Positions 51,410 through 64,000 of a DNA stretch of 64,000 bases are shown in pieces; the first letter of the stretch is position 1; every line of letters starts with the position of its first letter. The notes under the pieces were generated by a model, which was given only the letters and a program-made list of their open reading frames with translations, did not search any database and was not told where the DNA came from. This DNA is from Candidatus Oxydemutatoraceae bacterium. GTDB taxonomy: Bacteria > Pseudomonadota > Gammaproteobacteria > Poriferisulfidales > Oxydemutatoraceae. Location of the stretch: the NCBI GenBank assembly GCA_965218975.1, contig OZ244717.1:224001-288000 (forward strand), given 5' to 3'. A program made the position numbers and the translations under genes.

Positions 51410-51903
51410 GAGATCAGATATGCAGTATCAACACATTGGCCACCGCATCACCTGTCTGCGTGGAACGCACAGGCAGATATGATGCCCTATTATTTTGGAA
51501 GAGTTGTAGCTCCCGAACGCATTCAAGGTCGGTCGCAGTACTTTGTACCGCTGGCGGCGGCGGACCTGGCCGCAATTGATTCAGCGTGAAATCAAACGTC
51601 TGCGCCAAGATCATTTGAATCTCGGCAGCAGTAAAATCTTTGAGCTAATGAAACCGTTTTGTGTTTGGTGGCGATGCTCGGCACAGTGTTTGTCATCCAT
51701 GACGAGACTTGGTTCTGTCAACAAGCCCCAGCCCCGACGTCCTTGTCGGGTCGTTCGCCGCTGAAAACCGATCGGTTTTCCGGGCGCGTCTCACCCTGCA
51801 CCGCCCTCATGCCGGCAACGGACAGAAAGCACCGATCCGAATGTTACTGCCGAACGCTTCCCTCAAAGCACTTCAAAAATCCCATTTAGGATGGCATCGT
51901 ACA
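51410..51903 (+). mobile_element. Deleted IS481-family relic carrying one structured repeat (51697-51798)
   Basis: MQYQHIGHR start, EIKRLRQDHLNLGSSKI, one repeat unit, right end GGATGGCATCGTACA. Confidence 0.8.
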
Positions 51904-51975: not shown

Positions 51976-53400
51976 ATGAATCAATCAGCATTAAACAAAC
52001 AAATAAATAAAGAGCAGATTGATAGTTTGAAAAATGACGCAAAAGCTCTTTCAGCTTTTTTACAAGATCGGAGCGATGGCGCAATTATTTATGTACTAAA
52101 AAAGTTAGGGAGACTAAAGAATGGATATAACAAGCAGCCATTACTAAATCTTTTAAACAATAGTAACGAGACAATCAGGTCGCTTGCAATAAAAAATCTT
52201 GCAAAAATAAGTGATACTTCTTTATTAAACACTTTTATAGAATTTGCTAAACAAGATGAAAGCAGCGAAGTTAGACGGGAGTCCGTTTCCGCTATTGGGA
52301 GGTTAAGAAATGAAAAAACGATTCCGGTGCTGACTCAATTGTTGTCGGATAAAGATCCGAAAGTTGTCATGCAAGCTATAAGGGGATTACTTGTTTTTTC
52401 AAAAAAAAGCCAAGTAAGGGGAGAATTATCAAGATTGCTTGATCATCCGAATGAATTAATCAAAGAAGTTATCAGTAAAGAAATAAATGGGGCAAGCCAT
52501 AGATCGAAAGATAATGGGAAGCATGATGAGTTTCCGGTTTATCTTAAGAATACGATTGTTCACGGTAATGTTGTAGAGATATTAAAACACGTTCCTGATG
52601 AGTCTGTTCATCTCACTTTTACTTCACCACCTTATTATAATGCCAGAAATTATTCAATTTACCAAAGTTACAATGAGTATTTGCAGTTTCTAGAAGAAGT
52701 TTTTAAGGGAATTCATCGGGTTACAAAAGAAGGCAGATTTTTTATACTTAATACATCACCGATCATTATTCCAAGGATAAGCAGATCTCACGCTAGCAAA
52801 AGGTACCCTATCCCTTATGATATTCATCCGTTATTAATAAAAATGGGATGGGAATTTATTGATGATATTGTGTGGGTAAAACCAGAAGCAAGTGTGAAAA
52901 ATAGAAATGCGGGTTTTCTGCAGCACAGGAAGCCATTGGCTTATAAACCAAATGCGATTTCTGAAATGTTAATGGTTTATAGAAAAGAAACGGACAAGTT
53001 AATTGATTGGAATATGCATAAGTATGGTCGGGGTAAAGTTGAGAGGAGTAAGGTTACAGGCAAATATGAAACTACAAATGTTTGGTATATTGACCCGACT
53101 TTTGATAGGGTCCATAGTGCAGTTTTCCCTTTAGAGTTATGTGATCGTGTTATCAAATATTATTCATTTGTTGATGATTTAATTTTTGACCCGTTTGCAG
53201 GGAGCGGAACTCTTGGCAAAGCAGCCGTTAATTTAAACCGACATTTCTTTTTAACGGAAAAAGACTCAAGATATGTCAGTTATATGAAAGAAGATTTAAT
53301 TAAGGGGTATGGCTTATTTAACGGGAGAGACTCGCAACCGAACTTCGTAGATATTAATAGTTTCATAACTTTAATTAAAGAAAAATATGACAATAACTGA
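51976..53400 (+). CDS. Beta-class (probably m4C) DNA methyltransferase with N-terminal HEAT repeats
   Basis: HEAT repeats (IRSLAIKNLAKI, VRRESVSAIGRL, VVMQAIRGL), then FTSPPY and later DPFAGSGT; AT-rich. Confidence 0.88.
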   Translation: MNQSALNKQINKEQIDSLKNDAKALSAFLQDRSDGAIIYVLKKLGRLKNGYNKQPLLNLLNNSNETIRSLAIKNLAKISDTSLLNTFIEFAKQDESSEVRRESVSAIGRLRNEKTIPVLTQLLSDKDPKVVMQAIRGLLVFSKKSQVRGELSRLLDHPNELIKEVISKEINGASHRSKDNGKHDEFPVYLKNTIVHGNVVEILKHVPDESVHLTFTSPPYYNARNYSIYQSYNEYLQFLEEVFKGIHRVTKEGRFFILNTSPIIIPRISRSHASKRYPIPYDIHPLLIKMGWEFIDDIVWVKPEASVKNRNAGFLQHRKPLAYKPNAISEMLMVYRKETDKLIDWNMHKYGRGKVERSKVTGKYETTNVWYIDPTFDRVHSAVFPLELCDRVIKYYSFVDDLIFDPFAGSGTLGKAAVNLNRHFFLTEKDSRYVSYMKEDLIKGYGLFNGRDSQPNFVDINSFITLIKEKYDNN

Positions 53401-54298
53401 ACAGACAGTAAAAAATATAATAAGGAATCTTTTAAAAGGAAAGGATTACAGAATTGAAATTATTACTCTTATTGATACTAGATTTTTACAGTTCGCCATT
53501 TATTTTTTCAAGCTTATAGTTGACGCAAAATTAAAAAGCGAAGATATCACTGTCGATTGGTATAAAAAATCTTTTTTGAATCCGAGTTTGCCGACAAAAG
53601 AAATCGCCATCAATTCCGGCTTAAATAAAAAGACAATTCATAACATGTTTAATTCCTCGACAAAAGAAATCGTCATTGATGCTTCAAATAAACATTATGA
53701 TCTTTTACATAAATCCATTAAAGATTTAGTTGATGCTAAACACGAGATTGAATTAGTTTTAACAATTAAATTTAAAGGAATTAGCGTTGATCTTAATATC
53801 AATGAAAGCTTAATTGTAATAAATGCCTTAGCTGTGAAAAGATCAGAGTTGAGGGGTGGGTTTTGGAGCACTGCCGGGAAAAGAGTTGAAAAACCATTGA
53901 TGCAGACACTTTGTAAGCTGTACAGTGTATCCGAAAGAAACTATTTTTTAAAAATAAAAGGAGAAAACACGAAAGATGACTTTGAGAGAGAAGTAGACTT
54001 TTATTTGGTGGGCGGAAACAACCGACATAAATGCGAAGTAAAATTAATGGGACGAGGAAATCCGGAAAGTGCCGATGCCGTTATAGCAAGGGGGAGTAAG
54101 GTTTTTGTGGCCGATAAATTATCCGATACTAATAAAAAGCAGTTGGATAGTTTAAATGTTGAGTGGGTTGAATTAAGGAGTAGTGGTGGATTTGAGAAAT
54201 TTGATACGGTATTAGAAAATTTGAAAATTCCACATATAAGATCACTCAGTAACATAGATGAAAGATTAGAAGTAGCATTGAAAGAGATTTTTCATTAA
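53387..54298 (+). CDS. CfrBI-family type II restriction endonuclease
   Basis: GLNKKTIHN, WSTAGKRVEKPLM, REVDF, CEVKLMGRGNPESADAVIAR; overlaps the methylase stop. Confidence 0.8.
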   Translation: MTITEQTVKNIIRNLLKGKDYRIEIITLIDTRFLQFAIYFFKLIVDAKLKSEDITVDWYKKSFLNPSLPTKEIAINSGLNKKTIHNMFNSSTKEIVIDASNKHYDLLHKSIKDLVDAKHEIELVLTIKFKGISVDLNINESLIVINALAVKRSELRGGFWSTAGKRVEKPLMQTLCKLYSVSERNYFLKIKGENTKDDFEREVDFYLVGGNNRHKCEVKLMGRGNPESADAVIARGSKVFVADKLSDTNKKQLDSLNVEWVELRSSGGFEKFDTVLENLKIPHIRSLSNIDERLEVALKEIFH

Positions 54299-54608: not shown

Positions 54609-54960
54609 TCAGTTTCCTCCGGGGCGCGACTTGCTCGGAAGCGGGAACGGAGCTTCGTCCCATTTCAAACCTACGCTACGGTAGGTCCTGTTGACGTCCG
54701 CACTCGCGCCGGATCCGCCACCCTGTCCCGCTTGATAGACCCGGTCGAGATTCAGTAGAACGCCGCCGCTTCGCTCCAGCCCGTACACCGTGGCGCGCTT
54801 GCTCTGCGGCTGTGCGATACGCGCCAGTACCAGCTCGCGCAGGATGCGATTGGCCGCCATACGGCGCGCACCCAACACCTAGTTCCATCCGAGGTGCGAA
54901 TAAATCTGCGCGAACGCCTCGTGCACCCCAAGCGTCAGACGCGTTTCCTCACGGCATTTA
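54609..54960 (-). pseudogene. IS1634-like transposase relic
   Basis: LRELVLARIAQPQSKRATVYGLERSGGVLLNLDRVYQ; fused to unrelated pieces. Confidence 0.55.
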
Positions 54961-54989
54961 GCCAGATCCGCCGATGCCTCTTGCACGGC

Positions 54990-55161
54990 GCTTTGCCGCG
55001 GTCATGCAAGGCGCTGAGCCCAGTGCGGCGATAACGCTGGCGCCAGCGGTACAAAGTACTGCGACCGACCTTGAATACGTTCGGGAGTTATAACCTCCCA
55101 AAATAATAGGGCAGTATATTTCTGTTGAAGCTTAGAATGCTCATGAGCCTCCATTATTGAA
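54990..55161 (-). mobile_element. 5' fragment of a further IS481 relic, cut by the adjacent copy
   Basis: Closely similar to 56330-56500 (GAGGCTCATGAGC..AAATATACTGCCCTATTATTTT..). Confidence 0.7.
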
Positions 55162-55162
55162 G

Positions 55163-56615
55163 TATACGATGCCACCCTAAATGGGATTTTTGAAGCGCTT
55201 CGAGAGAAGCGTTCGACAGTAACATTCGGGGATCGGTGTTTTCTGTCCGTTGCCGACATGAGGGCGGTGCGGGGTGAGACGCGCCCGGAAAACCAATTGG
55301 TTTTCAGCGGTGAACGACCCGACAAGGACGTCGGGGCTGGGGCTTGTTGACAGAACCCAGTCGCGTCATGGACGACAGGCACTTTACCGACAATCCGGCA
55401 CAATCCGCCGACAATCCGGCACAATCCGCCGACAATTCGCACAATCCACCACCAAACTACAAAATGGTTTCATAACCGGTCATTGAATGCTTCCGTATCG
55501 GTAAATAGCAGGTCTTCTGCATGATCGATACAATCTTCTTGGACGGTGCGGCTGAAGCGCTTGATGTGCGCGTTCATTTTCGGACACTTGGGATAGGTCA
55601 GCCACTGCTCAATCACGGGCGATTCCCGGATGAGCCGGGCAAACTGTCCTTGAAACTCACTACCGCCGTCCGTCAAGATATATTTTACCGGTGGCGGTAG
55701 CACCGCCAGGGTCAAGCGCAGAAATGCGGCAGCACTGCGGCTGTTACAGCAGTTGGTTGCCACTGCCGTTGCCATGCGGGTATAGACATCAATGGCCGTT
55801 AAGACGGTGCGGCGCATCCCGTGCTGATAACGCACAATTGTATCTAGGGCGATGCAATGCTCCGGATACTGTGCTTTGAAGTCTTTCGGCTTGTGTGCCC
55901 TGCAACGGCGCTTAAACGGTCGTTTTGTTTGTCCTTTGGCATTCGTGCGCTGCGGAACACGGCGCATTTTATCCGGCGCATCCGCGGTCAGGCGCGCAAT
56001 CGTGCGGACACTCGGGCAGGGTGAGACGCGCCCGGAAAACCGATCGGTTTTCAGCGGCGAACGACCCGACAAGGACGTCGGGGCTAGGGCTTGTTGACAG
56101 AACCAAGTCTCGTCATGGGTGAGACGCGCCCGGAAAACCAATTGGTTTTCAGCGGCGAACGACCCGACAAGGACGTCGGGGCTGGGGCTTGTTGACAGAA
56201 CCCAGTCGCGTCATGGACGACAGGCACTTTGCCGACAATCCGGCACAATCCGCCGACAATCCGGCAACAAGCGCAAAACGGTTTCACACTGAATCGGTTG
56301 GCTAGGTCCGTCGGCGCCTCTTGCGCGGCGCTCTGGTGCGGCCATGCAAGGCGCTGAACCCAATGCGGCGATAGCGCTAGCGCCAACAGCACTAAAGTAC
56401 TGCGACCGACCTTAAATGCGTTCGGGAGTTACAACCCTCCTAAAATAATAGGGCAGCATATTTCTGTTGAAGTTTAGAGCGCTCATGAGCCTCCATTCTT
56501 GAAGCTAAATTGGCTCATATAGAAACCTTTGATGCGGTGGCCGATGTGTTGATATTGCATATCGGTCACCTTTTTGAGTTAAGCCGTGAGTCCCATACGT
56601 ATCTGGCACTATACA
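55163..56615 (-). mobile_element. Longest IS481-family relic, with both ends and 3 structured repeats (55270-55371, 56017-56216)
   Basis: Ends TATACGATGCCACCCTA and TGTATAGTGCCAGATAC; core IALDT..ILTDGGSEF..KMNAHIKRFSRT; the catalytic Glu appears replaced by Lys. Confidence 0.85.
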
Positions 56616-56761: not shown

Positions 56762-57952
56762 TTATTTTTTACTTGAAGATGTACCGGATAGCTTGTTCAA
56801 TGCTTTATCTATTAAGGCTATTGCCTCATCAATGTTTTGATCGGAAGTATTAAATCCAAGACTGAATCTGATTGACGACTCAGCCTCATCACTTGTCAAC
56901 CCTATGGCTTTGAGAACATGAGATGGCTCTTGAGTGCCCGAAGCGCATGCCGAACCGATTGATGCCGCAAGACGTGGTTGCAACACATTCAGGATATCAT
57001 GTGCTGTAAACCCCTTGAATCCGATGTTGGCATTGCCCGGGTGTCTGTATTCGACAGGGGGGCCGCACAGCGTCATGGGCCATGACAACGCCAACAGTTT
57101 GTCGACAAATCGGTCCCGGTGTCTGCACAATTGTTCACGCTTATTCCTTGCTTGATCAGAACATAAGTATTCTGCTGCCGCTCCCATTCCAACGCATAAC
57201 GGTGTAGGCAAAGTTCCGGAACGCAGTCCGTTCTGTTGTCCGCCACCGTAGATCAGAGGTTCAATGCTTTCTTGTAAGTCACGACGGATATAGAGCGCGC
57301 CAATTCCCTTGGGACCATATATTTTATGCCCTGAAAGACTCAACAGGTCGGTATCATTTGCAAAGTTTTGCATATCTATCGCAATAGGCGCCTGAGCGGC
57401 ATCACAATGAAAGATGGCGCCGGATTGTCTGATTAAGCCGGATAAATTCGCGATATCCTGTATGGTTCCTATCTCATTGTTTACCGCCATAATCGAGACG
57501 ATCAGCACGTCATCAGTGAGGCTGCGTTCCAAGTCCGGCAGTAAGATGTGTCCGGATTCGTCAACCGGAAGCAATTCGACCTGAAAACCGAGCTGCTCGT
57601 TCAATACGCGCCCGACGGCGAGCACACTCTTGTGCTCAATTGCGCTAAGAAGGATTTTTTTTCTTGCAGCGCCCTCTGCCGCCGCATGTTTTGCTAACCC
57701 TAGCAAAGCTAAATTGTTGGACTCGGTTGCCCCGGACGTGAACACGATTTCATCGGCATCGGCGGCGATCAAGCGGGCAACTTGCTGCGCCGCTTTTTCC
57801 ACAGCGCGAAAACTTTCCCAACCAGGCGCATGATCTGCCGAATGCGGACTGGCATAGGATTCCGAGAAGTACGGACGCATTTCACGCAACACTCTGTCGG
57901 AAACCGGCGTCGTTGCCTGATAGTCAAAATACAGATATTCTGATGCGTTCAT
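56762..57952 (-). CDS. Cysteine desulfurase (IscS/DndA/SspA type)
   Basis: DYQATTP, FTSGATESNN, VNNEIG, DAAQ, SGHKIYGPKG, RSGT, GSACAS; start reassigned to MNASEY. Confidence 0.93.
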   Translation of the reverse strand: MNASEYLYFDYQATTPVSDRVLREMRPYFSESYASPHSADHAPGWESFRAVEKAAQQVARLIAADADEIVFTSGATESNNLALLGLAKHAAAEGAARKKILLSAIEHKSVLAVGRVLNEQLGFQVELLPVDESGHILLPDLERSLTDDVLIVSIMAVNNEIGTIQDIANLSGLIRQSGAIFHCDAAQAPIAIDMQNFANDTDLLSLSGHKIYGPKGIGALYIRRDLQESIEPLIYGGGQQNGLRSGTLPTPLCVGMGAAAEYLCSDQARNKREQLCRHRDRFVDKLLALSWPMTLCGPPVEYRHPGNANIGFKGFTAHDILNVLQPRLAASIGSACASGTQEPSHVLKAIGLTSDEAESSIRFSLGFNTSDQNIDEAIALIDKALNKLSGTSSSKK

Positions 57953-58053
57953 CGGTAAGTCTTCAATCTTGAAATATCCTATAATACCAGAGACAGTCTT
58001 CAGGAATATAACCTTGAGACTATAATACATGTTCCGATAACAGGACGACGAAT

Positions 58054-59028
58054 ATGACACGACGCGGCCCCCTATGTAGACAGGATTACAAACCGCACTT
58101 TTTAGGACACGAAACATTTCCCCTGCGCTATGGGTGGCTGAAAAAAGTCTATGACCGTGTGTCCCGCACCGAGAGAAATAAAAACAACAAAGCCCTGTGT
58201 TGGGGTGATAACGCTATTGCCTTGTTTGGTGTCGGTAAAAATATGGTTGCGTCAATGCGCCATTGGTCAATTGCGGCGGGAATAATTGAAGAGCCTTTAG
58301 GCGCAAATAAGGTGATTACAACCAAGATTGGCCGACAACTGTTCGGCAACGGCGGCCTTGATCCTTACTTGGAGCACCAAACATCTCTATGGCTAATCCA
58401 TTGGAAGCTGGCAACGGAGTGGAAAAAAAAGACCACTTGGTTTTGGGCTTTCAATCACTACTACGCCGTACAGTTTGAGCAGGATAAGTTTGTCAAAAGA
58501 CTTGAGCGCCTGGCAAAACATCTCGGGTGGCCACATGCCGCACATAGGACCATCAAAAATGACGTTGTCTGTTTTATTCGAACCTATACGACTCATCCCC
58601 TTGCCTCAAAAACGGGATGCGATGATTTACTCGGGTCGCCCCTAGCAGAGCTAGGCCTCATAAAGCCGTTCTCTCGAAAGGGTGAGTTCAGATTTGTTCA
58701 CGGCCCGAAATCAACCTTGGGCAAAGGCGCTTTTGTTTATGCTCTTCTTGAGTTTTGGTCAAATTTTTCTCCCGCTACTTCAACACTTTCGTTTGAGGCG
58801 ATTACCTACGAGCCCGGGTCGCCGGGACGCGCTTTTCTGCTTGATGAGAACGACGCGGCCGAGAGATTATCTGACATTGACGATATTACCGGCGGTGCGC
58901 TGCGGTGGTCGGAGACGGCAGGATTGAAGCAGGTCGTGCGGAACCCCGGCTTTGCGATAGATTCTGATTATGCTCTTCGGCTCATAAAAAATGATTATGA
59001 CGATTCTGCTTGCATGAAGGCAGCGTAG
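58054..59028 (+). CDS. DUF4007-family protein (SspB-like)
   Basis: GHETFPLRYGWLKK, FGVGKNMVASMRHW, DPYLE..LWLIHW, PLAELGL, SPGRAF, ETAGLKQ. Confidence 0.88.
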   Translation: MTRRGPLCRQDYKPHFLGHETFPLRYGWLKKVYDRVSRTERNKNNKALCWGDNAIALFGVGKNMVASMRHWSIAAGIIEEPLGANKVITTKIGRQLFGNGGLDPYLEHQTSLWLIHWKLATEWKKKTTWFWAFNHYYAVQFEQDKFVKRLERLAKHLGWPHAAHRTIKNDVVCFIRTYTTHPLASKTGCDDLLGSPLAELGLIKPFSRKGEFRFVHGPKSTLGKGAFVYALLEFWSNFSPATSTLSFEAITYEPGSPGRAFLLDENDAAERLSDIDDITGGALRWSETAGLKQVVRNPGFAIDSDYALRLIKNDYDDSACMKAA

Positions 59029-62000
59029 TGGCACTAATTGATCAAATTCATATCGCGCGGCGTTTCCAAAAATCAATCCGCATTGATGCCGATTTCGGCG
59101 AACGCGATGCGCTGCACGGATTTATATGCCCTCGGTCATCGGGGAATACTCTGCTATCCATGGCCCGGCACGTGTCGGAGACCAACCAAGGCGCTTTTAC
59201 TTGGACCGGTCCGTACGGCAGCGGAAAATCTAGTCTTATCGTTGCTTTAAGCGCATTGCTCGGCGGTAATCCGCATTTGCGAGAACAAGCCGCCGCGATT
59301 TTTGGCCGAACGCTTACTAATGCGATACGAGGAATGCTTCCGGCAGGGATGAAGGGTTGGCGGGTAGTGCCGGTGATAGGGAGGCGAGATGACCCTGTTG
59401 ATGTTATCGGACGCACCTTAGAGACAACGGGGCTTGTCGCTCGCCGGCCTCGCGGCGGCTGGACCGAAGATCTTCTTATTACCAATTTGATGGAAGGCGC
59501 GACAAACAAGGTTTACGGCGGGTTGATCTTATTCGTTGACGAGATGGGAAAATTCCTTGAGGCGGCCGCACAAGACGAGGTGGATATTTATATTTTCCAG
59601 CAACTTGCCGAAACCGCCTCGCGAAGCAACGGGCGACTCCTCGTCATTGGTATATTGCACCAGGCGTTTGAAGAATATGCGCACCGCTTGTCTTACGAAA
59701 TGCGCGATGAGTGGGCCAAGATACAAGGACGCTTCATTGATCTTCCGGTTAACACGACCGGCGAAGAACAAATTGACCTTATTTCCCGCGCAATCGGAAA
59801 CAACCGCCGTGCCGGTAAACCGAGCGCGCCATCTGTAACCGTGGCACAGTCGGTATATCGCGGTCGCACCGGCGATGCTCGGCAATTAGCCCGGATGCTG
59901 GAAAATTGCCGGCCGTTGCATCCTGTTGTCGCGTGTTTGCTCGGGCCGATATCGCGCCGGCGCTTTGGCCAAAACCAACGCAGTATATTTGGCTTTCTCA
60001 ATTCAGCCGAACCTCACGGTTTTCAGGATTATCTGCGCACCGCAAACGGAAACAGTCGCTACGGGCCCGAAAAGCTTTGGGATTATTTGCAGACAAATCT
60101 CGAGCCGTCCATTCTCGCCTCGCCGGACAGTCATCGATGGGCATTTGCGGCGGAAGCCATAGAGCGCTGTGAGTCTGTCGGGGGAGATATCTTCCATGTC
60201 AATTTATTAAAAACGATCGCGGTTATCGATCTTTTTAAGGAACGATCGGGACTCGTAGCCGGTTTCGATCTGCTTAAATCATGTTTTCCCGGTATCACGG
60301 CAAAATCTTTAAAGCAAGGTCTAAAACGGCTGGACGATTGGTCGTTGACCGTATTCAAAAAATTTCAGGATGCATACGCCGTATTTGCCGGCAGCGACTT
60401 TGATATTGACCGGGCTGTCGGCAAGGCATTGGAGGAAATTGACGAAATTGATTTTGCCGCACTGAAATCGTTGGCGGGGCTTCAGCCGATTCTTGCCAAG
60501 CGCCACTATTACGAAACCGGAGCAATGCGCTGGTTTGACGTAGATATCACTTCGGCGTGTGATGTTGCGGAATCCGTAGCTCGGTTCGAAACGAAAAACG
60601 ATGTGATCGGTCAGTTCCTGTCGGTAATCCCGACAAAAGGAGAAGATGAAGATACGGTTAAAAAATTGTGCCGCGACGCAGCAAAGTCGCACGGTCAATG
60701 GGGCATCATCGTCGGGTTTTCCGAGTACTCCCGGGCTGTTGTTGCCCTCGCGCGCGAGCTGCTGGCGACGGATAAAGTAAATAACGAATCTCCCGAGTTG
60801 GCGGGCGATACCGTTGCGCGCCGCGAAGTGTCCGCCCGTCTTGCTGAGTTGCAAGCCCTGCTTGAGCGCGAGCTGAATAAGTCTTTTGACCGAGCCGAAT
60901 GGTATCGCAAACATTGCGTTCCCAAGCCGTATCGCCGAGCCGATTTGAATAATCTGGTTTCTAAGCTTGCCGATAAGCGCTTTGATCAGTGCCCCAAGAT
61001 TCGTAACGAACTTTTAAATAGACAAAAACCTTCCGGCAGCGCCGCCGGCGCGCGGAATGCCTTGTTACGTTGTATGGTCCGGAACGAGGGCAAGCCTCGC
61101 CTCGGAATAGAGGGCTACCCTGCTGAAGGCGGTTTGTTCGCATCTATACTCGAGACGACAGGCCTGTATTCCGAAGCGCGTGCAGGAAAATGGCATTTTA
61201 CGGCACCACCCCAAGGCAAGACTGACAAGTGCAGGATATTTCCTATGTGGAATGCGGCTGTCCGACACATCAAAAAAAATAATCAGCGTCCCGTGCCGGT
61301 ATCGGAACTCTACGACAAGATTTGGTCTCAACCGCCCTACGGGGTCAAGGCGGGATTGGTGCCCGTTTTATCCGTTGCATTTATATTGTCGCAGCGTAAC
61401 AACGTAGCGGTATATCGCGAGAGTATTTTTCGTGCCCGTTTTGACGATATTGACATGGAATATATGGTCAAGAACGCTGCGGCCATACAGTTGCGCTGGA
61501 TGAGGCTCAACAGTACGTCGCGCCGCTTATTGTCCGATATGACCGAGGTCGTGCGCGACTTGAACAAGAACAACAAACTGCTTCATCCGGAGCCGATTGA
61601 CGTGGCGCGCGGTTTGGTTGCAATTTACGAACGATTGCCTCAGTGGGCTAAGCGCACGATGAGGCTCTCGGCAAACGCGATCAGAGTGCGCGATATTTTT
61701 AAGCACGCATACGACCCTAATAAATTCTTGTTTGACGATATTCCTACATTGTCGGAAGGGAAGAGGACGGGCCCTTCAGGCGCAAAAGCTATTCGGAAAA
61801 TTGTTTCCTTGGTAAATGAAGGCTTGCAAGAGCTTGTGCAGGCCTATCCTTTGATGCTCCGTCGTATGCGCGACGTTATGTTGGCAGAATTGCAGGTTCC
61901 GAACGCATCAAGGCAATCTCTTGCGGAATTAAGAGACCGAGCTACCAATATAAAAGAGTTGGCGGGTGATTTCCGTCTGGATGCTTTTATCGGGAGAATC

Positions 62001-62429
62001 GCCCGATACGACGGCAGCGACGCCGGATTTGAGGGGATTGCCAGTCTTGCAGCGAATAAACCGCCTCGCGACTGGGTTGATCCGGATTTGAACCGCGCCG
62101 CAATAGAGATTGCGGACATGGCGCAGAAGTTTTTAAGAGCCGAAACTTTTACCCGTATCCGCGGACGGCCTGAGAAACGCCAGGCCATGGCTGTCTTTAT
62201 CGGCGTGAAGGGGCGACCCGTGCCTTTGCTGGAAGAGTTTGATGTCATTGACTCCGACCGAGCGGCAATTGATGATCTTATTGAGCATGTCTCTGCCGTG
62301 CTTGAGACGGTTGATACAAATAGCCGGAGTATCGTATTGGCCGCATTGGCCGAACTTGGCGCCCGGTATATGCAAAAGCCGGACCAAGCCAAGCGAAAAA
62401 GGAAGAACGGAAAACCTACCGATGCCTGA
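59028..62429 (+). CDS. Large P-loop ATPase (SspC/BrxC-like)
   Basis: TGPYGSGKSS Walker A, LFVDEMGKFLE Walker B, EWAKIQGRF, PLHP, FGQNQRSIF, PPYGVKAG; GTG start overlaps the DUF4007 stop. Confidence 0.82.
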   Translation: MALIDQIHIARRFQKSIRIDADFGERDALHGFICPRSSGNTLLSMARHVSETNQGAFTWTGPYGSGKSSLIVALSALLGGNPHLREQAAAIFGRTLTNAIRGMLPAGMKGWRVVPVIGRRDDPVDVIGRTLETTGLVARRPRGGWTEDLLITNLMEGATNKVYGGLILFVDEMGKFLEAAAQDEVDIYIFQQLAETASRSNGRLLVIGILHQAFEEYAHRLSYEMRDEWAKIQGRFIDLPVNTTGEEQIDLISRAIGNNRRAGKPSAPSVTVAQSVYRGRTGDARQLARMLENCRPLHPVVACLLGPISRRRFGQNQRSIFGFLNSAEPHGFQDYLRTANGNSRYGPEKLWDYLQTNLEPSILASPDSHRWAFAAEAIERCESVGGDIFHVNLLKTIAVIDLFKERSGLVAGFDLLKSCFPGITAKSLKQGLKRLDDWSLTVFKKFQDAYAVFAGSDFDIDRAVGKALEEIDEIDFAALKSLAGLQPILAKRHYYETGAMRWFDVDITSACDVAESVARFETKNDVIGQFLSVIPTKGEDEDTVKKLCRDAAKSHGQWGIIVGFSEYSRAVVALARELLATDKVNNESPELAGDTVARREVSARLAELQALLERELNKSFDRAEWYRKHCVPKPYRRADLNNLVSKLADKRFDQCPKIRNELLNRQKPSGSAAGARNALLRCMVRNEGKPRLGIEGYPAEGGLFASILETTGLYSEARAGKWHFTAPPQGKTDKCRIFPMWNAAVRHIKKNNQRPVPVSELYDKIWSQPPYGVKAGLVPVLSVAFILSQRNNVAVYRESIFRARFDDIDMEYMVKNAAAIQLRWMRLNSTSRRLLSDMTEVVRDLNKNNKLLHPEPIDVARGLVAIYERLPQWAKRTMRLSANAIRVRDIFKHAYDPNKFLFDDIPTLSEGKRTGPSGAKAIRKIVSLVNEGLQELVQAYPLMLRRMRDVMLAELQVPNASRQSLAELRDRATNIKELAGDFRLDAFIGRIARYDGSDAGFEGIASLAANKPPRDWVDPDLNRAAIEIADMAQKFLRAETFTRIRGRPEKRQAMAVFIGVKGRPVPLLEEFDVIDSDRAAIDDLIEHVSAVLETVDTNSRSIVLAALAELGARYMQKPDQAKRKRKNGKPTDA

Positions 62430-63252
62430 AAAGCATGTTTTAGGATTATCCGGCGGCAGAGACAGCGCTGCGTTGGCTGTTTACATGCGGCAACATTATC
62501 CCGAGCTTGAGTTGGAATATTTCTTTACCGATACCGGCAAAGAATTACCCGAAGTTTATGAGTATCTAGGACGGTTGGAAGGGTTTCTCGGGCAGCCGAT
62601 TTTGCGCCTTAATCCGGATCGCGATTTTGACTTCTGGTTAAAGCAATATGACGGTTTCCTTCCTTCTCCTCAAACGAGATGGTGCACGAGACAATTAAAA
62701 CTTCGTCCGTTTGAAGACTGGATTCGACCGATGCTTGAAAACGGAACAAAAGTGTATAGTTACGTCGCTATTCGCGGGGATGAGGCGTATAGAAAAGGGT
62801 ATTCTCCTAAATACGAGAATTTGAAAATCAAATTGCCTTTTAAGGAGGCAGGTATAGACAAAGCCGGGGTGCTTGAAATTCTTGACGGTGCCGGGCTCGG
62901 CTTGCCCGAATATTACTCATGGCGGACTAGGAGCGGGTGCACGTTTTGTTTCTTTCAGCAGAAAATTGAGTGGGTGCGGCTGAAGGAGCGGCACCCGGAC
63001 GCATTTGAAGAAGCCAAGGCATACGAGAAAGACGCCGTTAACCACGGTTCCCCTTTCACCTGGAGTCAAGGTGAGTCCTTAGAAGAGCTGTCACAGCCGG
63101 AGCGTATTGACCAGATCAAAGAAGAACATGCGCGACGTCTTCTGCGCTTGAGGGGTAAAGTGCAGAATAATCCTTTGCGTTCCGATAGCGAGCCCTTGGA
63201 TATTGACGATTTATACGGCAAGGCAAAAGTTTGCTTGGCATGCCATAAGTAG
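62422..63252 (+). CDS. PAPS-reductase-family protein (SspD/DndC-like)
   Basis: PP-loop LSGGRDS, FTDTG, RWCT..LK, RSGCTFCFFQ, C-terminal CLACHK; start overlaps the ATPase stop. Confidence 0.88.
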   Translation: MPEKHVLGLSGGRDSAALAVYMRQHYPELELEYFFTDTGKELPEVYEYLGRLEGFLGQPILRLNPDRDFDFWLKQYDGFLPSPQTRWCTRQLKLRPFEDWIRPMLENGTKVYSYVAIRGDEAYRKGYSPKYENLKIKLPFKEAGIDKAGVLEILDGAGLGLPEYYSWRTRSGCTFCFFQQKIEWVRLKERHPDAFEEAKAYEKDAVNHGSPFTWSQGESLEELSQPERIDQIKEEHARRLLRLRGKVQNNPLRSDSEPLDIDDLYGKAKVCLACHK

Positions 63253-63395
63253 ACTTTGACTGCTTTTCGGAAATAGTTGGTAGGCACTTCGGCAACGGCT
63301 TACTTGGGGATGTTCTTGCGGGGAGGTGTGCTTGAATCTTGAAACCGAACGGATTGTCGCATACGGACGTGCGGGCACACCCACAGCGATGCAAC

Positions 63396-63866
63396 TTAGT
63401 GCTTTCTCAGCATCTTGTCGATTGCCTCCGACAGATTCCAGATCGGTTCCGCACCACCGTCCTTCAGCATCTCCAAAACATGCGGCAGCCCGGCCGCGGC
63501 AAGGCCGTTTGCGAGCGTCATCATCTTTCGCGGTTCTGACACAATATCTACGTTACCTGATTTGCTGATCGCGATTAGCATGAGCGTGTGAATACGCCAC
63601 GGATCGCTGATGAATATCGACCCGTCAACTATCTTTTTTATCTTCTTCCGCGTACTGTGTTTCGCAGTGTCAGCAGGTTTTAAGCCTAGTCGTGCCGCGA
63701 TGCAGACGGACAGAAACCAGAGATCAACCATGCGTGGAAACGGGCTTTGGTCTATTACGGTGTCGGCTTCGGCGCTTCGGCAATATCGCGTGAACGCCTC
63801 GTGGAATTCCACTGGCACGTTGATGTCAATGGTTTGAAAAGGATTGAAATATCGGTCTGCCATCAT
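63396..63866 (-). CDS. Hypothetical protein, candidate DndE-like
   Basis: 156 aa helical protein with RBS GGAGG; SPFPRMVDLWFLSVCIAARLG...ANGLAAAGL; DndE likeness is inferred from size and context. Confidence 0.5.
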   Translation of the reverse strand: MMADRYFNPFQTIDINVPVEFHEAFTRYCRSAEADTVIDQSPFPRMVDLWFLSVCIAARLGLKPADTAKHSTRKKIKKIVDGSIFISDPWRIHTLMLIAISKSGNVDIVSEPRKMMTLANGLAAAGLPHVLEMLKDGGAEPIWNLSEAIDKMLRKH

Positions 63867-63872
63867 CGCCTC

Positions 63873-64000
63873 CTATGACGCCACGCCTGGTTCGACTCGC
63901 GGGTCTGGGCGGCGCCGGCAGAGCTGGCATTCGTCCTTGTGATCGCATTCGCAGCGGAGGACCCTGCGTTCTTCAATGCCGGGATCGTTCACGAGCATTT
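63873..64000 (-). CDS. C-terminal tail of an upstream gene (5' part outside window), Cys/His-rich, possibly a DndD/SMC-like ATPase
   Basis: ...LVNDPGIEERRVLRCECDHKDECQLCRRRPDPRVEPGVAS*; the stop overlaps the RBS of the next gene. Confidence 0.45.
   Translation of the reverse strand, partial: MLVNDPGIEERRVLRCECDHKDECQLCRRRPDPRVEPGVAS

Follow-up and report, generated by a model that had tools for sequence, protein, structure and literature searches.

A stretch of 64,000 nucleotides from Candidatus Oxydemutatoraceae bacterium (contig OZ244717.1, positions 224001-288000; hereafter the window) was found to end in a locus that is likely a two-module phosphorothioation (PT) defence island, in which a canonical SspABCD writer stands beside a PbeABCD restrictor of a distinct, Ssp-associated clade. 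The window lies within one 2.08-Mb contig of a genome that is 99.4% complete. Positions 56762-63252 of the window are a canonical SspABCD module, and the minus-strand genes that converge on it are the end of a complete pbeABCD operon reaching 4.4 kb beyond the window. The linkage of the two modules is conserved across phyla and gene layouts and is well supported by comparative evidence. Ssp and Pbe modules are each known, and their pairing is apparently undescribed. DNA to the right of the window is numbered on a stretch designated L002 (L002 x = window x-55999). The genes of the locus are as follows.

56762-57952, minus strand: sspA, cysteine desulfurase of 396 aa when counted from M56, within an open frame that reaches 58117
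57953-58053, 101 bp: divergent sspA/sspB spacer, presumed promoter region, measured from the corrected sspA start
58054-59028, plus strand: sspB, DUF4007 DNA-binding subunit (PADLOC SspB E 9.5e-101, across almost the full profile; Pfam DUF4007 E 3.3e-80)
59010-62429, plus strand: sspC, large P-loop ATPase with two candidate starts, TTG 59010 and GTG 59028, in overlap with the sspB stop
62422-63252, plus strand: sspD, sulfurtransferase resembling 3'-phosphoadenosine-5'-phosphosulfate (PAPS) reductase, 276 aa from M62; overlaps the sspC stop by 8 nt
63253-63395, 143 bp: convergent gap between sspD and pbeD, empty in this genome, a variable-cargo slot in relatives
63396-63866, minus strand: pbeD, 156 aa, DndE-fold (tandem ribbon-helix-helix, RHH) by predicted structure
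L002 7874-10015 (63873-66014 on the window scale), minus strand: pbeC, CxC ATP-binding cassette (ABC) ATPase, 713 aa; its 3' end occupies window 63873-64000
L002 10012-10257, minus strand: pbeB, 81 aa; its stop overlaps the pbeC ATG
L002 10274-12442, minus strand: pbeA, HKD nuclease plus superfamily 2 (SF2) helicase, 722 aa (PADLOC PbeA E 1e-190)

The SspABCD writer module

An earlier note on this DNA, made from the sequence alone, had read the plus-strand genes and the divergent desulfurase as SspABCD, and PADLOC profiles bore this out (rounded E-values of 4e-127, 1e-100, 0 and 4e-136 for SspA to SspD). The open reading frames (ORFs), strands and overlaps that it described were all found in place in the ORF map and the translations, and Pfam and NCBIfam scans agree with the PADLOC assignments. 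SspA matched PADLOC SspA at E 4.3e-127 and DndA at 6.6e-123, as well as Pfam Aminotran_5 at E 2.8e-79. Its start is likely M56 (57952), because the family profiles align to the long ORF only from residue 62-63 onward. The SspA translation contains the motifs SGHK and SACASG, which we take to be the pyridoxal phosphate-lysine context and the cysteine loop of the active site, respectively. A consensus scan of the spacer between sspA and sspB gave no sigma-70-like site, so that a promoter in this spacer can only be presumed.

The sspB, sspC and sspD genes form one operon, overlapping at both junctions. SspC matched PADLOC PDLC02780 over nearly the whole profile (E 0, 1318 bits, positions 1-1044 of 1045), with BrxC reaching just 1e-111, and a Walker A motif, GSGKS, is seen in its translation. 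SspD, in which an SGGRDS motif is seen, matched PADLOC SspD at E 4.2e-136 from residue 65, against 2.5e-11 for BrxP and 1.5e-5 for DndC. This protein had been thought short at 276 aa and unusual in ending with an extra CxxC motif, neither of which held up. Its length is canonical, because the PADLOC SspD profile is covered end to end (1-277 of 277), and a C-terminal CxxC is present in 57 of 58 SspD homologues of the related loci described below, the single miss being a weak and probably non-orthologous match.

The PbeABCD operon

The two minus-strand genes at the end of the window had been proposed to be a DndD/DndE-like pair combined with a different effector. They do relate to DndD and DndE, being a DndD paralogue and a DndE-fold protein; what did not stand is their status as loose Dnd parts, since they are instead PbeC and PbeD of the described PbeABCD system, also known as the CxC ABC ATPase-DndE system (PMC6459918, PMC10853773). 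None of the observations that the earlier note had named as refuting its reading was made. Because these parts are already known, only their pairing with Ssp is unusual. The DNA just past the window, which the earlier note had suggested reading for an ATPase, a helicase or a nuclease, was found to hold the rest of pbeC, then pbeB, and then pbeA, whose HKD-nuclease/SF2-helicase product is the different effector that had been predicted.

PbeC matched PADLOC PbeC at E 1.1e-53 (with partial profile coverage) and DndD at 3.7e-29, as well as Pfam AAA_23. Its start was placed at M24 of the long ORF because all 51 full-length homologues begin at the equivalent MKLLRAEF. The protein carries a Walker A motif (NESGKT) at residue 36, CIC at residue 353 in the middle of the coiled coil, and DTPLG at residue 613. 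The CxC motif is present in 61 of 63 PbeC homologues, and both misses are truncated ORFs. The Cys-rich tail RCECDHKDECQLC seen at the end of the window is the PbeC C-terminus; the tail CECDHKDECQLC lies at residue 688, and the tail pattern was found in 60/60 long homologues. This C-x-C-x-H-x3/4-C-x2-C cluster (L002 7874-8020) lies past the ABC ATPase domain, is without counterpart in PbeC2, the Dnd-linked PbeC of the same genome, and is probably a zinc knuckle.

PbeA matched Pfam ResIII, DEAD and Helicase_C, and also PLDc_2, at E 1.3e-4, which is under the cut-off of that family. It contains HPK...GSSN at residue 152, GSGKT at 310, DEAH at 418 and QRRGRLLR at 645, and SF2 motifs I, II and VI could be recognised; the nuclease signature HxK...GSxN was found in 54 of 55 PbeA homologues in addition to this PbeA. 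PbeB is predicted to be a folded three-helix bundle (predicted local distance difference test score, pLDDT, of 82; residues 5-73) with a mean column identity of 67% within the clade, and a pbeB-homologous ORF is present in 62 of 72 related loci. The pbeD gene begins 6 nt after pbeC. Catalytic motifs are intact. The system is missed by current annotation, PGAP naming the genes of plasmid CP099618.1 (described below) 'hypothetical protein' or 'AAA family ATPase'.

PbeD and its predicted complex with PbeC

Sequence scans of PbeD against PADLOC, Pfam and NCBIfam gave no match, and a 77-member PbeD profile searched against PDB sequences had its best match at E 0.021, to a designed protein. The PbeD family comprises 1,192 proteins at E<=0.001 among 1,240 candidates (223 representatives at 50% identity), and no Pfam domain was found among the 120 members listed. 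The AlphaFold2 model of PbeD, built from a 77-row alignment, reached a pLDDT of 94.6 and consists of a strand, a helix, a long loop and a helix, followed by a strand, a helix and a long helix, and then by a C-terminal helix; the loop of the first unit has 17 residues. When this model was compared with 48,161 chains in an exhaustive VIA-align search, Natronorubrum DndE (7x4e_A) came out on top (Z 8.4, root-mean-square deviation 3.6, 113/114 residues aligned), followed by E. coli DndE (5wtu_A, Z 7.2) and a relaxosome chain from the F plasmid (9f0x_E, Z 7.0). The fourth rank falls to Z 4.0, so that no more than three chains attain Z>=5. DndE is described as a tandem RHH protein with an architecture otherwise known in TraY, and the 'clade 2' DndEs, which are paired with CxC ATPases, as proteins in which a loop runs to some 15 residues and the C-terminal helix is long (PMC10853773); the secondary structure of the PbeD model agrees with this clade-2 description.

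Several results count against the assignment. Pfam DndE matches 0/77 members of the PbeD family, the Foldseek comparison of the model with the PDB that the earlier note had proposed gave nothing at E<=0.001, DndE being reached by the exhaustive VIA-align search, and a Z of 8.4 is in the middling range of the tool, in which Z 7-8 can reflect a common arrangement. Trust in the assignment comes from the combination of its rank, an almost complete coverage and the position of the gene, and by its model PbeD is a DndE-fold, tandem RHH protein with a C-terminal helix.

The prediction of a PbeC-PbeD complex scored an ipSAE of 0.69, against 0.00 for the best control. The ipSAE mark is reached by 58 of 80 solved complexes and by 2 of 110 mismatched pairs, counts that are only rough guides here because custom alignments were used. 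The runs share at least 85% of contacts, with a partner pLDDT of at least 78. In the predicted interface, the PbeC coiled coil flanking the CIC hook on either side (residues 299-330 and 385-419) meets residues 30-59, 88-110 and 142-154 of PbeD, leaving the ribbon strands 14-18 and 76-81 free; conserved interface residues are P42, F43, R45 and D48 of PbeD, and H302, L305, L327, W411 and Y415 of PbeC. PbeD is thus predicted to bind the PbeC coiled coil beside the hook. We know of no solved DndD-DndE complex; the model could still draw on one.

Conservation of the Ssp-Pbe linkage

By using the 156-aa PbeD as query we retrieved 72 related loci, which were compared with the window proteins by tblastn (E<=1e-5). 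By record title they come from Alpha- and Gammaproteobacteria, Rhodothermales, Latescibacterota, Binatia, Acidobacteriota, Nitrospirales, Planctomycetota, Poribacteria, Chloroflexota and a Bacillota metagenome-assembled genome (MAG), among others. At least two of SspB, SspC and SspD are present in 58 of the 72 loci, and in 45 of the 48 that have full 10-kb flanks; the remaining three comprise one locus with a weak SspD match and two without Ssp. Most other Ssp-negative loci are contigs ending near the pbe genes. DndC or DndE at >=50% coverage was found in 0/72 loci.

Three layouts occur among the 58 loci: convergent as in the window (38), co-directional from sspBCD into pbeABCD (15), and with sspA facing pbeD (5). 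Pbe modules 60-78% identical to the present one adjoin Ssp modules that are either close to it (SspC 41-67%) or distant (21-28%). On a quick FastTree tree of PbeA (56 rows; 17 other loci have no PbeA frame of at least 600 aa), the labels for layout and lineage need 12 changes, where the minimum is 4 and 0/200 shuffles were as low; they are therefore clustered, yet have been repeatedly re-assorted. On plasmid CP099618.1 from a cultured Sphingomonadaceae strain, all eight genes are co-directional; six junctions are either overlaps of 1-4 nt or gaps of about 1 nt, and at the seventh sspA and sspB overlap by 29 nt. Of 400 genomes sampled evenly from the phylum, 15 were found to have SspD (E<=1e-20). 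One of the 15 (G280) has a PbeD-family protein, 4.5 kb downstream of sspD on the same strand, and the sole other PbeD-family match in the 400 genomes, a weak one (E 2.6e-6), comes from a genome in which no SspD reached that threshold.

In the 38 convergent loci pbeD and sspD are separated by as little as 27 bp or as much as 8.5 kb, and many of these gaps are filled with cargo, SspE among it. Among the 58 Ssp-Pbe loci, 11 carry a canonical SspE; 14 an HATPase_c protein and a 632-aa protein that belongs to no known family, in some cases together with an Mrr-like nuclease; 8 a GmrSD_N/NsnA-like protein and a Ser/Thr kinase; 7 a DndB-like protein (420 aa in one example, with a 173-aa partner); and 3 another HATPase protein, with none of the cargo classes in 15. 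Examples of the filled slot are L011 10937-14829, L032 14850-16325, L036 10487-12630 and L028 7296-8558. Pbe is hence a constant neighbour of Ssp in this clade, yet not always the sole candidate partner.

A second, Dnd-linked Pbe locus in the same genome

The same genome carries another Pbe operon, beside a writer of the Dnd type.

Contig 405614-414263 (L077 9615-18264): DndC, DndD and DndE, then a second, divergent pbe operon
Contig 405734-407053: the only DndC of the genome (630 bits), 120 kb from the Ssp-Pbe locus, with its own DndD and DndE
Second pbe operon: PbeA2 (709 aa), a 63-aa ORF, PbeC2 (661 aa) and a 124-aa protein

PbeA and PbeA2 are 29% identical, and the two PbeC proteins align only at their ATPase ends. 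PbeC2 matches PADLOC PbeC at E 3e-261, has CDTC in place of CIC, and is without the C-terminal Cys cluster. Neither of the PbeD-position proteins of the genome (156 aa and 124 aa) has a PADLOC match, and no dndA was found beside the Dnd-Pbe locus in the ORF list. Eight relatives of PbeA2 were found; in each of the four close ones whose flanks are complete, DndCDE comes first (0/4 with Ssp). The Pbe clade therefore predicts the type of writer, as the present clade adjoins Ssp and that of PbeA2 follows DndCDE. A canonical DndABCDE system at the Ssp-Pbe locus was rejected, since no DndC was found there and the only one in the genome lies 120 kb away.

Two further observations concern this second clade and its surroundings. 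In one Anaerovoracaceae MAG (L088), a PbeA 32% identical to PbeA2 lies downstream of weak SspB-, SspC- and SspD-like matches (20-27%), which may be a further, independent pairing of an Ssp-like writer with Pbe. Four large ORFs that share one orientation (820, 433, 687 and 588 aa; L077 668-8241) stand immediately upstream of the Dnd-Pbe locus; they gave no PADLOC match at E<=1e-5 and could be another defence module.

Genomic setting

The Ssp-Pbe region looks like a horizontally acquired defence island. An orthologue of PbeC was not found in the 20 relatives searched, which belong to the same family or order. To the left of sspA lie the following features.

51976-54298: type II restriction-modification (R-M) cassette, in which an N6_N4 DNA methylase bearing HEAT repeats at its N-terminus is followed by a CfrBI-like endonuclease; GC content 0.32-0.35
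55470-56141: fragmentary rve-type integrase ORF (sub-threshold Pfam match), amid tandem and direct repeats

The R-M cassette is flanked by inverted copies of insertion sequence (IS)-derived repeats (window 51417-51901 against 54958-55439 and 56016-56563; seed 12, minimum length 25). Such repeats were found solely to the left of sspA, with none to the right of pbeA within stretch L089, and they bracket the R-M cassette rather than the Ssp-Pbe pair. The integrase fragment and the repeats around it are insertion-sequence remains at the left edge of the Ssp-Pbe island. A hairpin with a 14-bp stem and a T run (window 56536-56570) lies about 190 nt past the sspA stop, inside an IS-derived repeat, and also matches an inverted copy at L089 418-451. 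In scans for terminators and promoters the counts were not above those in shuffled sequences, and none was found in the convergent gap between sspD and pbeD. Directly after pbeA stand sulfur-metabolism genes (L002 12955-19237; 68954-75236 on the window scale), in the order of two sulfite-reductase-type proteins (dsrAB-like), a DsrE-family protein, a nitrate-reductase-gamma-like membrane protein and a 4Fe-4S protein.

Comparison with described systems

A close described arrangement is DndCDEA-PbeABCD of Haloterrigena jeotgali A29 (Xiong et al. 2019, PMC6459918), in which the same pbe order stands beside a PT writer and the small subunits are of similar size (PbeB 66 aa against 81 here; PbeD 152 aa against 156). 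The writer is DndCDEA there, whereas here it is SspABCD, of the single-strand type. The present Pbe clade is also distant from the PADLOC Pbe models, and its PbeC carries the extra, invariant C-terminal CxCxH-x3/4-CxxC cluster. The CxC ABC ATPase-DndE systems of Rakesh, Aravind and Krishnan (2024, PMC10853773) resemble the present one in combining an HKD nuclease-SF2 helicase, a small protein, a CxC-hook ATPase and a clade-2 DndE. In the parts of that source consulted they are partnered with DndD-type PT genes or cytosine methylases, or have no such partner, and a link to sspABCD is not described; the cognates of PbeB are rapidly evolving and mostly disordered there, whereas PbeB here is predicted to be folded and is well conserved.

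On the side of the writer, SspABCD-SspE (Xiong et al. 2020) and SspABCD-SspFGH (PMC8092258) have the same writer with an adjacent restriction module. The partner found here is neither SspE (DUF262/DUF1524) nor SspFGH, with its Walker-A SspF and FtsK-like SspH (PMC8092258). Of 2,678 sspBCD clusters, 83.9% were reported to have neither SspE nor SspFGH, and further partners were predicted (Wang et al. 2021, PMC8092258). Published PT defence pairings go no further than Dnd-DndFGH, Dnd-PbeABCD, Ssp-SspE and Ssp-SspFGH, and the table of a 2025 review has only these, plus TdpABC (PMC13223576). The Ssp-Pbe pairing was not described in the full-text literature searched; supplements to three of the reports (PMC10853773 S1, PMC8092258 Table S2, PMC6459918 Data 3-4) could list such loci.

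Proposed mechanism and alternative explanations

In the reading that we favour, the two modules would work as writer and restrictor. Judging from characterised relatives, SspA would take sulfur from cysteine and hand it over to SspD, which, with the DNA-binding SspB and the ATPase SspC, would install single-strand PT at a short motif, for which CpsCA is the example known from the systems studied in Vibrio and E. coli. PbeC, a coiled-coil ABC ATPase with a CxC zinc hook, and the tandem RHH protein PbeD may form a DNA-scanning pair, in which, according to the model, PbeD would sit on the PbeC coiled coil near the hook with its DNA-reading ribbon free. The pair would direct PbeA, an SF2 translocase-HKD nuclease, against DNA without the PT pattern of the host, PbeA action would block phage replication, and PbeB may be a small regulatory subunit.

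A standard system at this locus, whether SspBCDE, SspFGH or BREX type 4, is very improbable. A BREX-4-related system had been raised in the earlier note, and SspC and SspD are indeed homologous to BrxC and BrxP; BREX type 4 shares homologues of SspB (DUF4007), SspC (BrxC-like) and SspD (PAPS reductase) and a cysteine desulfurase (PMC12914056, PMC12839542). However, neither PglZ nor BrxL nor a fused BrxP-DUF4007 is found here, and the proteins score as Ssp, not Brx, with the Ssp models far above the Brx models for both SspC and SspD. SspE and PglZ, which had been missed in the window, are absent from the whole genome as well, as judged by PF03235 (GmrSD_N) or PADLOC PDLC02783 (one of ten PADLOC SspE models) for SspE and by PF08665 for PglZ. 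A search of the locus neighbours for SspFGH found no FtsK-type domain in the three neighbouring proteins, which are an HKD-SF2 helicase, an ABC ATPase and an RHH protein, unlike SspF and SspH of PMC8092258. A hybrid writer, in which PbeC and PbeD with SspA and SspD would add a second PT pattern as DndD and DndE do with DndC, leaving PbeA as the sole restriction component, is a little less remote and still improbable. PbeC and PbeD are paralogous to the modification proteins DndD and DndE, DndE variants have been proposed to set modification motifs (PMC10853773), and the invariant Cys/His cluster at the PbeC C-terminus, absent from PbeC2, could be an adaptor. Against this, deletions of pbe genes abolished protection in the only system tested, where pbeABCD was held to be separate from modification by DndCDEA (PMC6459918), SspBCD alone was enough for PT in the studied systems (PMC8092258), and the same Pbe module accompanies very different SspD lineages here.

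The more serious competitor, though we consider it rather unlikely, is that two independent systems lie side by side, SspABCD being an orphan or epigenetic PT writer and PbeABCD a self-contained, PT-independent and possibly abortive-infection system. Several of our own observations, and some published ones, pull in this direction and away from a joint function. Canonical SspE is present in 11 of the 58 Ssp-Pbe loci (PADLOC E down to 0), variable cargo parts the modules in most convergent loci, and with SspE in 11 loci and other cargo in 32, Pbe is not simply 'the' restriction partner of Ssp. Two of the 48 full-flank loci are without Ssp genes, and near-identical Pbe modules beside very different Ssp modules argue against a tight protein-protein fit. 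The island also carries an unrelated type II R-M cassette and IS remnants; adjacency can stem from defence-island clustering and whole-island transfer, the 72 loci, retrieved with one query, are not independent, and the PbeA tree is a quick one. In the literature, solitary Pbe/CxC systems are common (PMC6459918, PMC10853773): 320 of 553 pbeAC were without dndCD (PMC6459918), CxC/Pbe systems have been argued to be frequent in the absence of PT genes and perhaps to act alone or by suicide (PMC10853773), and a PT-dependent block of virus replication was shown only for the H. jeotgali system (PMC6459918). On the other side, the pair is kept in 45 of the 48 full-flank loci, through three layouts and swaps of the Ssp lineage; the eight genes of CP099618.1 are co-directional with abutting or overlapping junctions, a layout that the spacing in G280 also fits; and the writer follows the Pbe clade, being Ssp for this clade and DndCDE for the other. 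The two-module PT defence island is the reading that we retain as likely.

Implications

We regard it as plausible, leaning neither for nor against, that this PbeABCD clade is a fourth, unnamed restriction partner linked to Ssp, specialised on single-strand PT and moving between phyla as an eight-gene unit, its marks being the invariant Cys/His cluster of PbeC and a diverged subunit of DndE fold that would dock next to the zinc hook. This reading, if true, would explain part of the roughly 84% of sspBCD clusters now held as orphans, and a conserved Ssp-Pbe unit would give 'orphan' Ssp writers a further partner. The finding also bears on the dispute over whether Pbe/CxC systems are PT-dependent restriction systems (PMC6459918) or largely autonomous (PMC10853773). 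Tractable material is at hand in the eight-gene plasmid operon of a cultured strain and in a genome that holds both an Ssp-Pbe and a Dnd-Pbe pair. If the proposed pairing is true, it would allow a clean test of the PT-dependence of Pbe, for which the Dnd-Pbe pair of the same genome would be a natural comparator.

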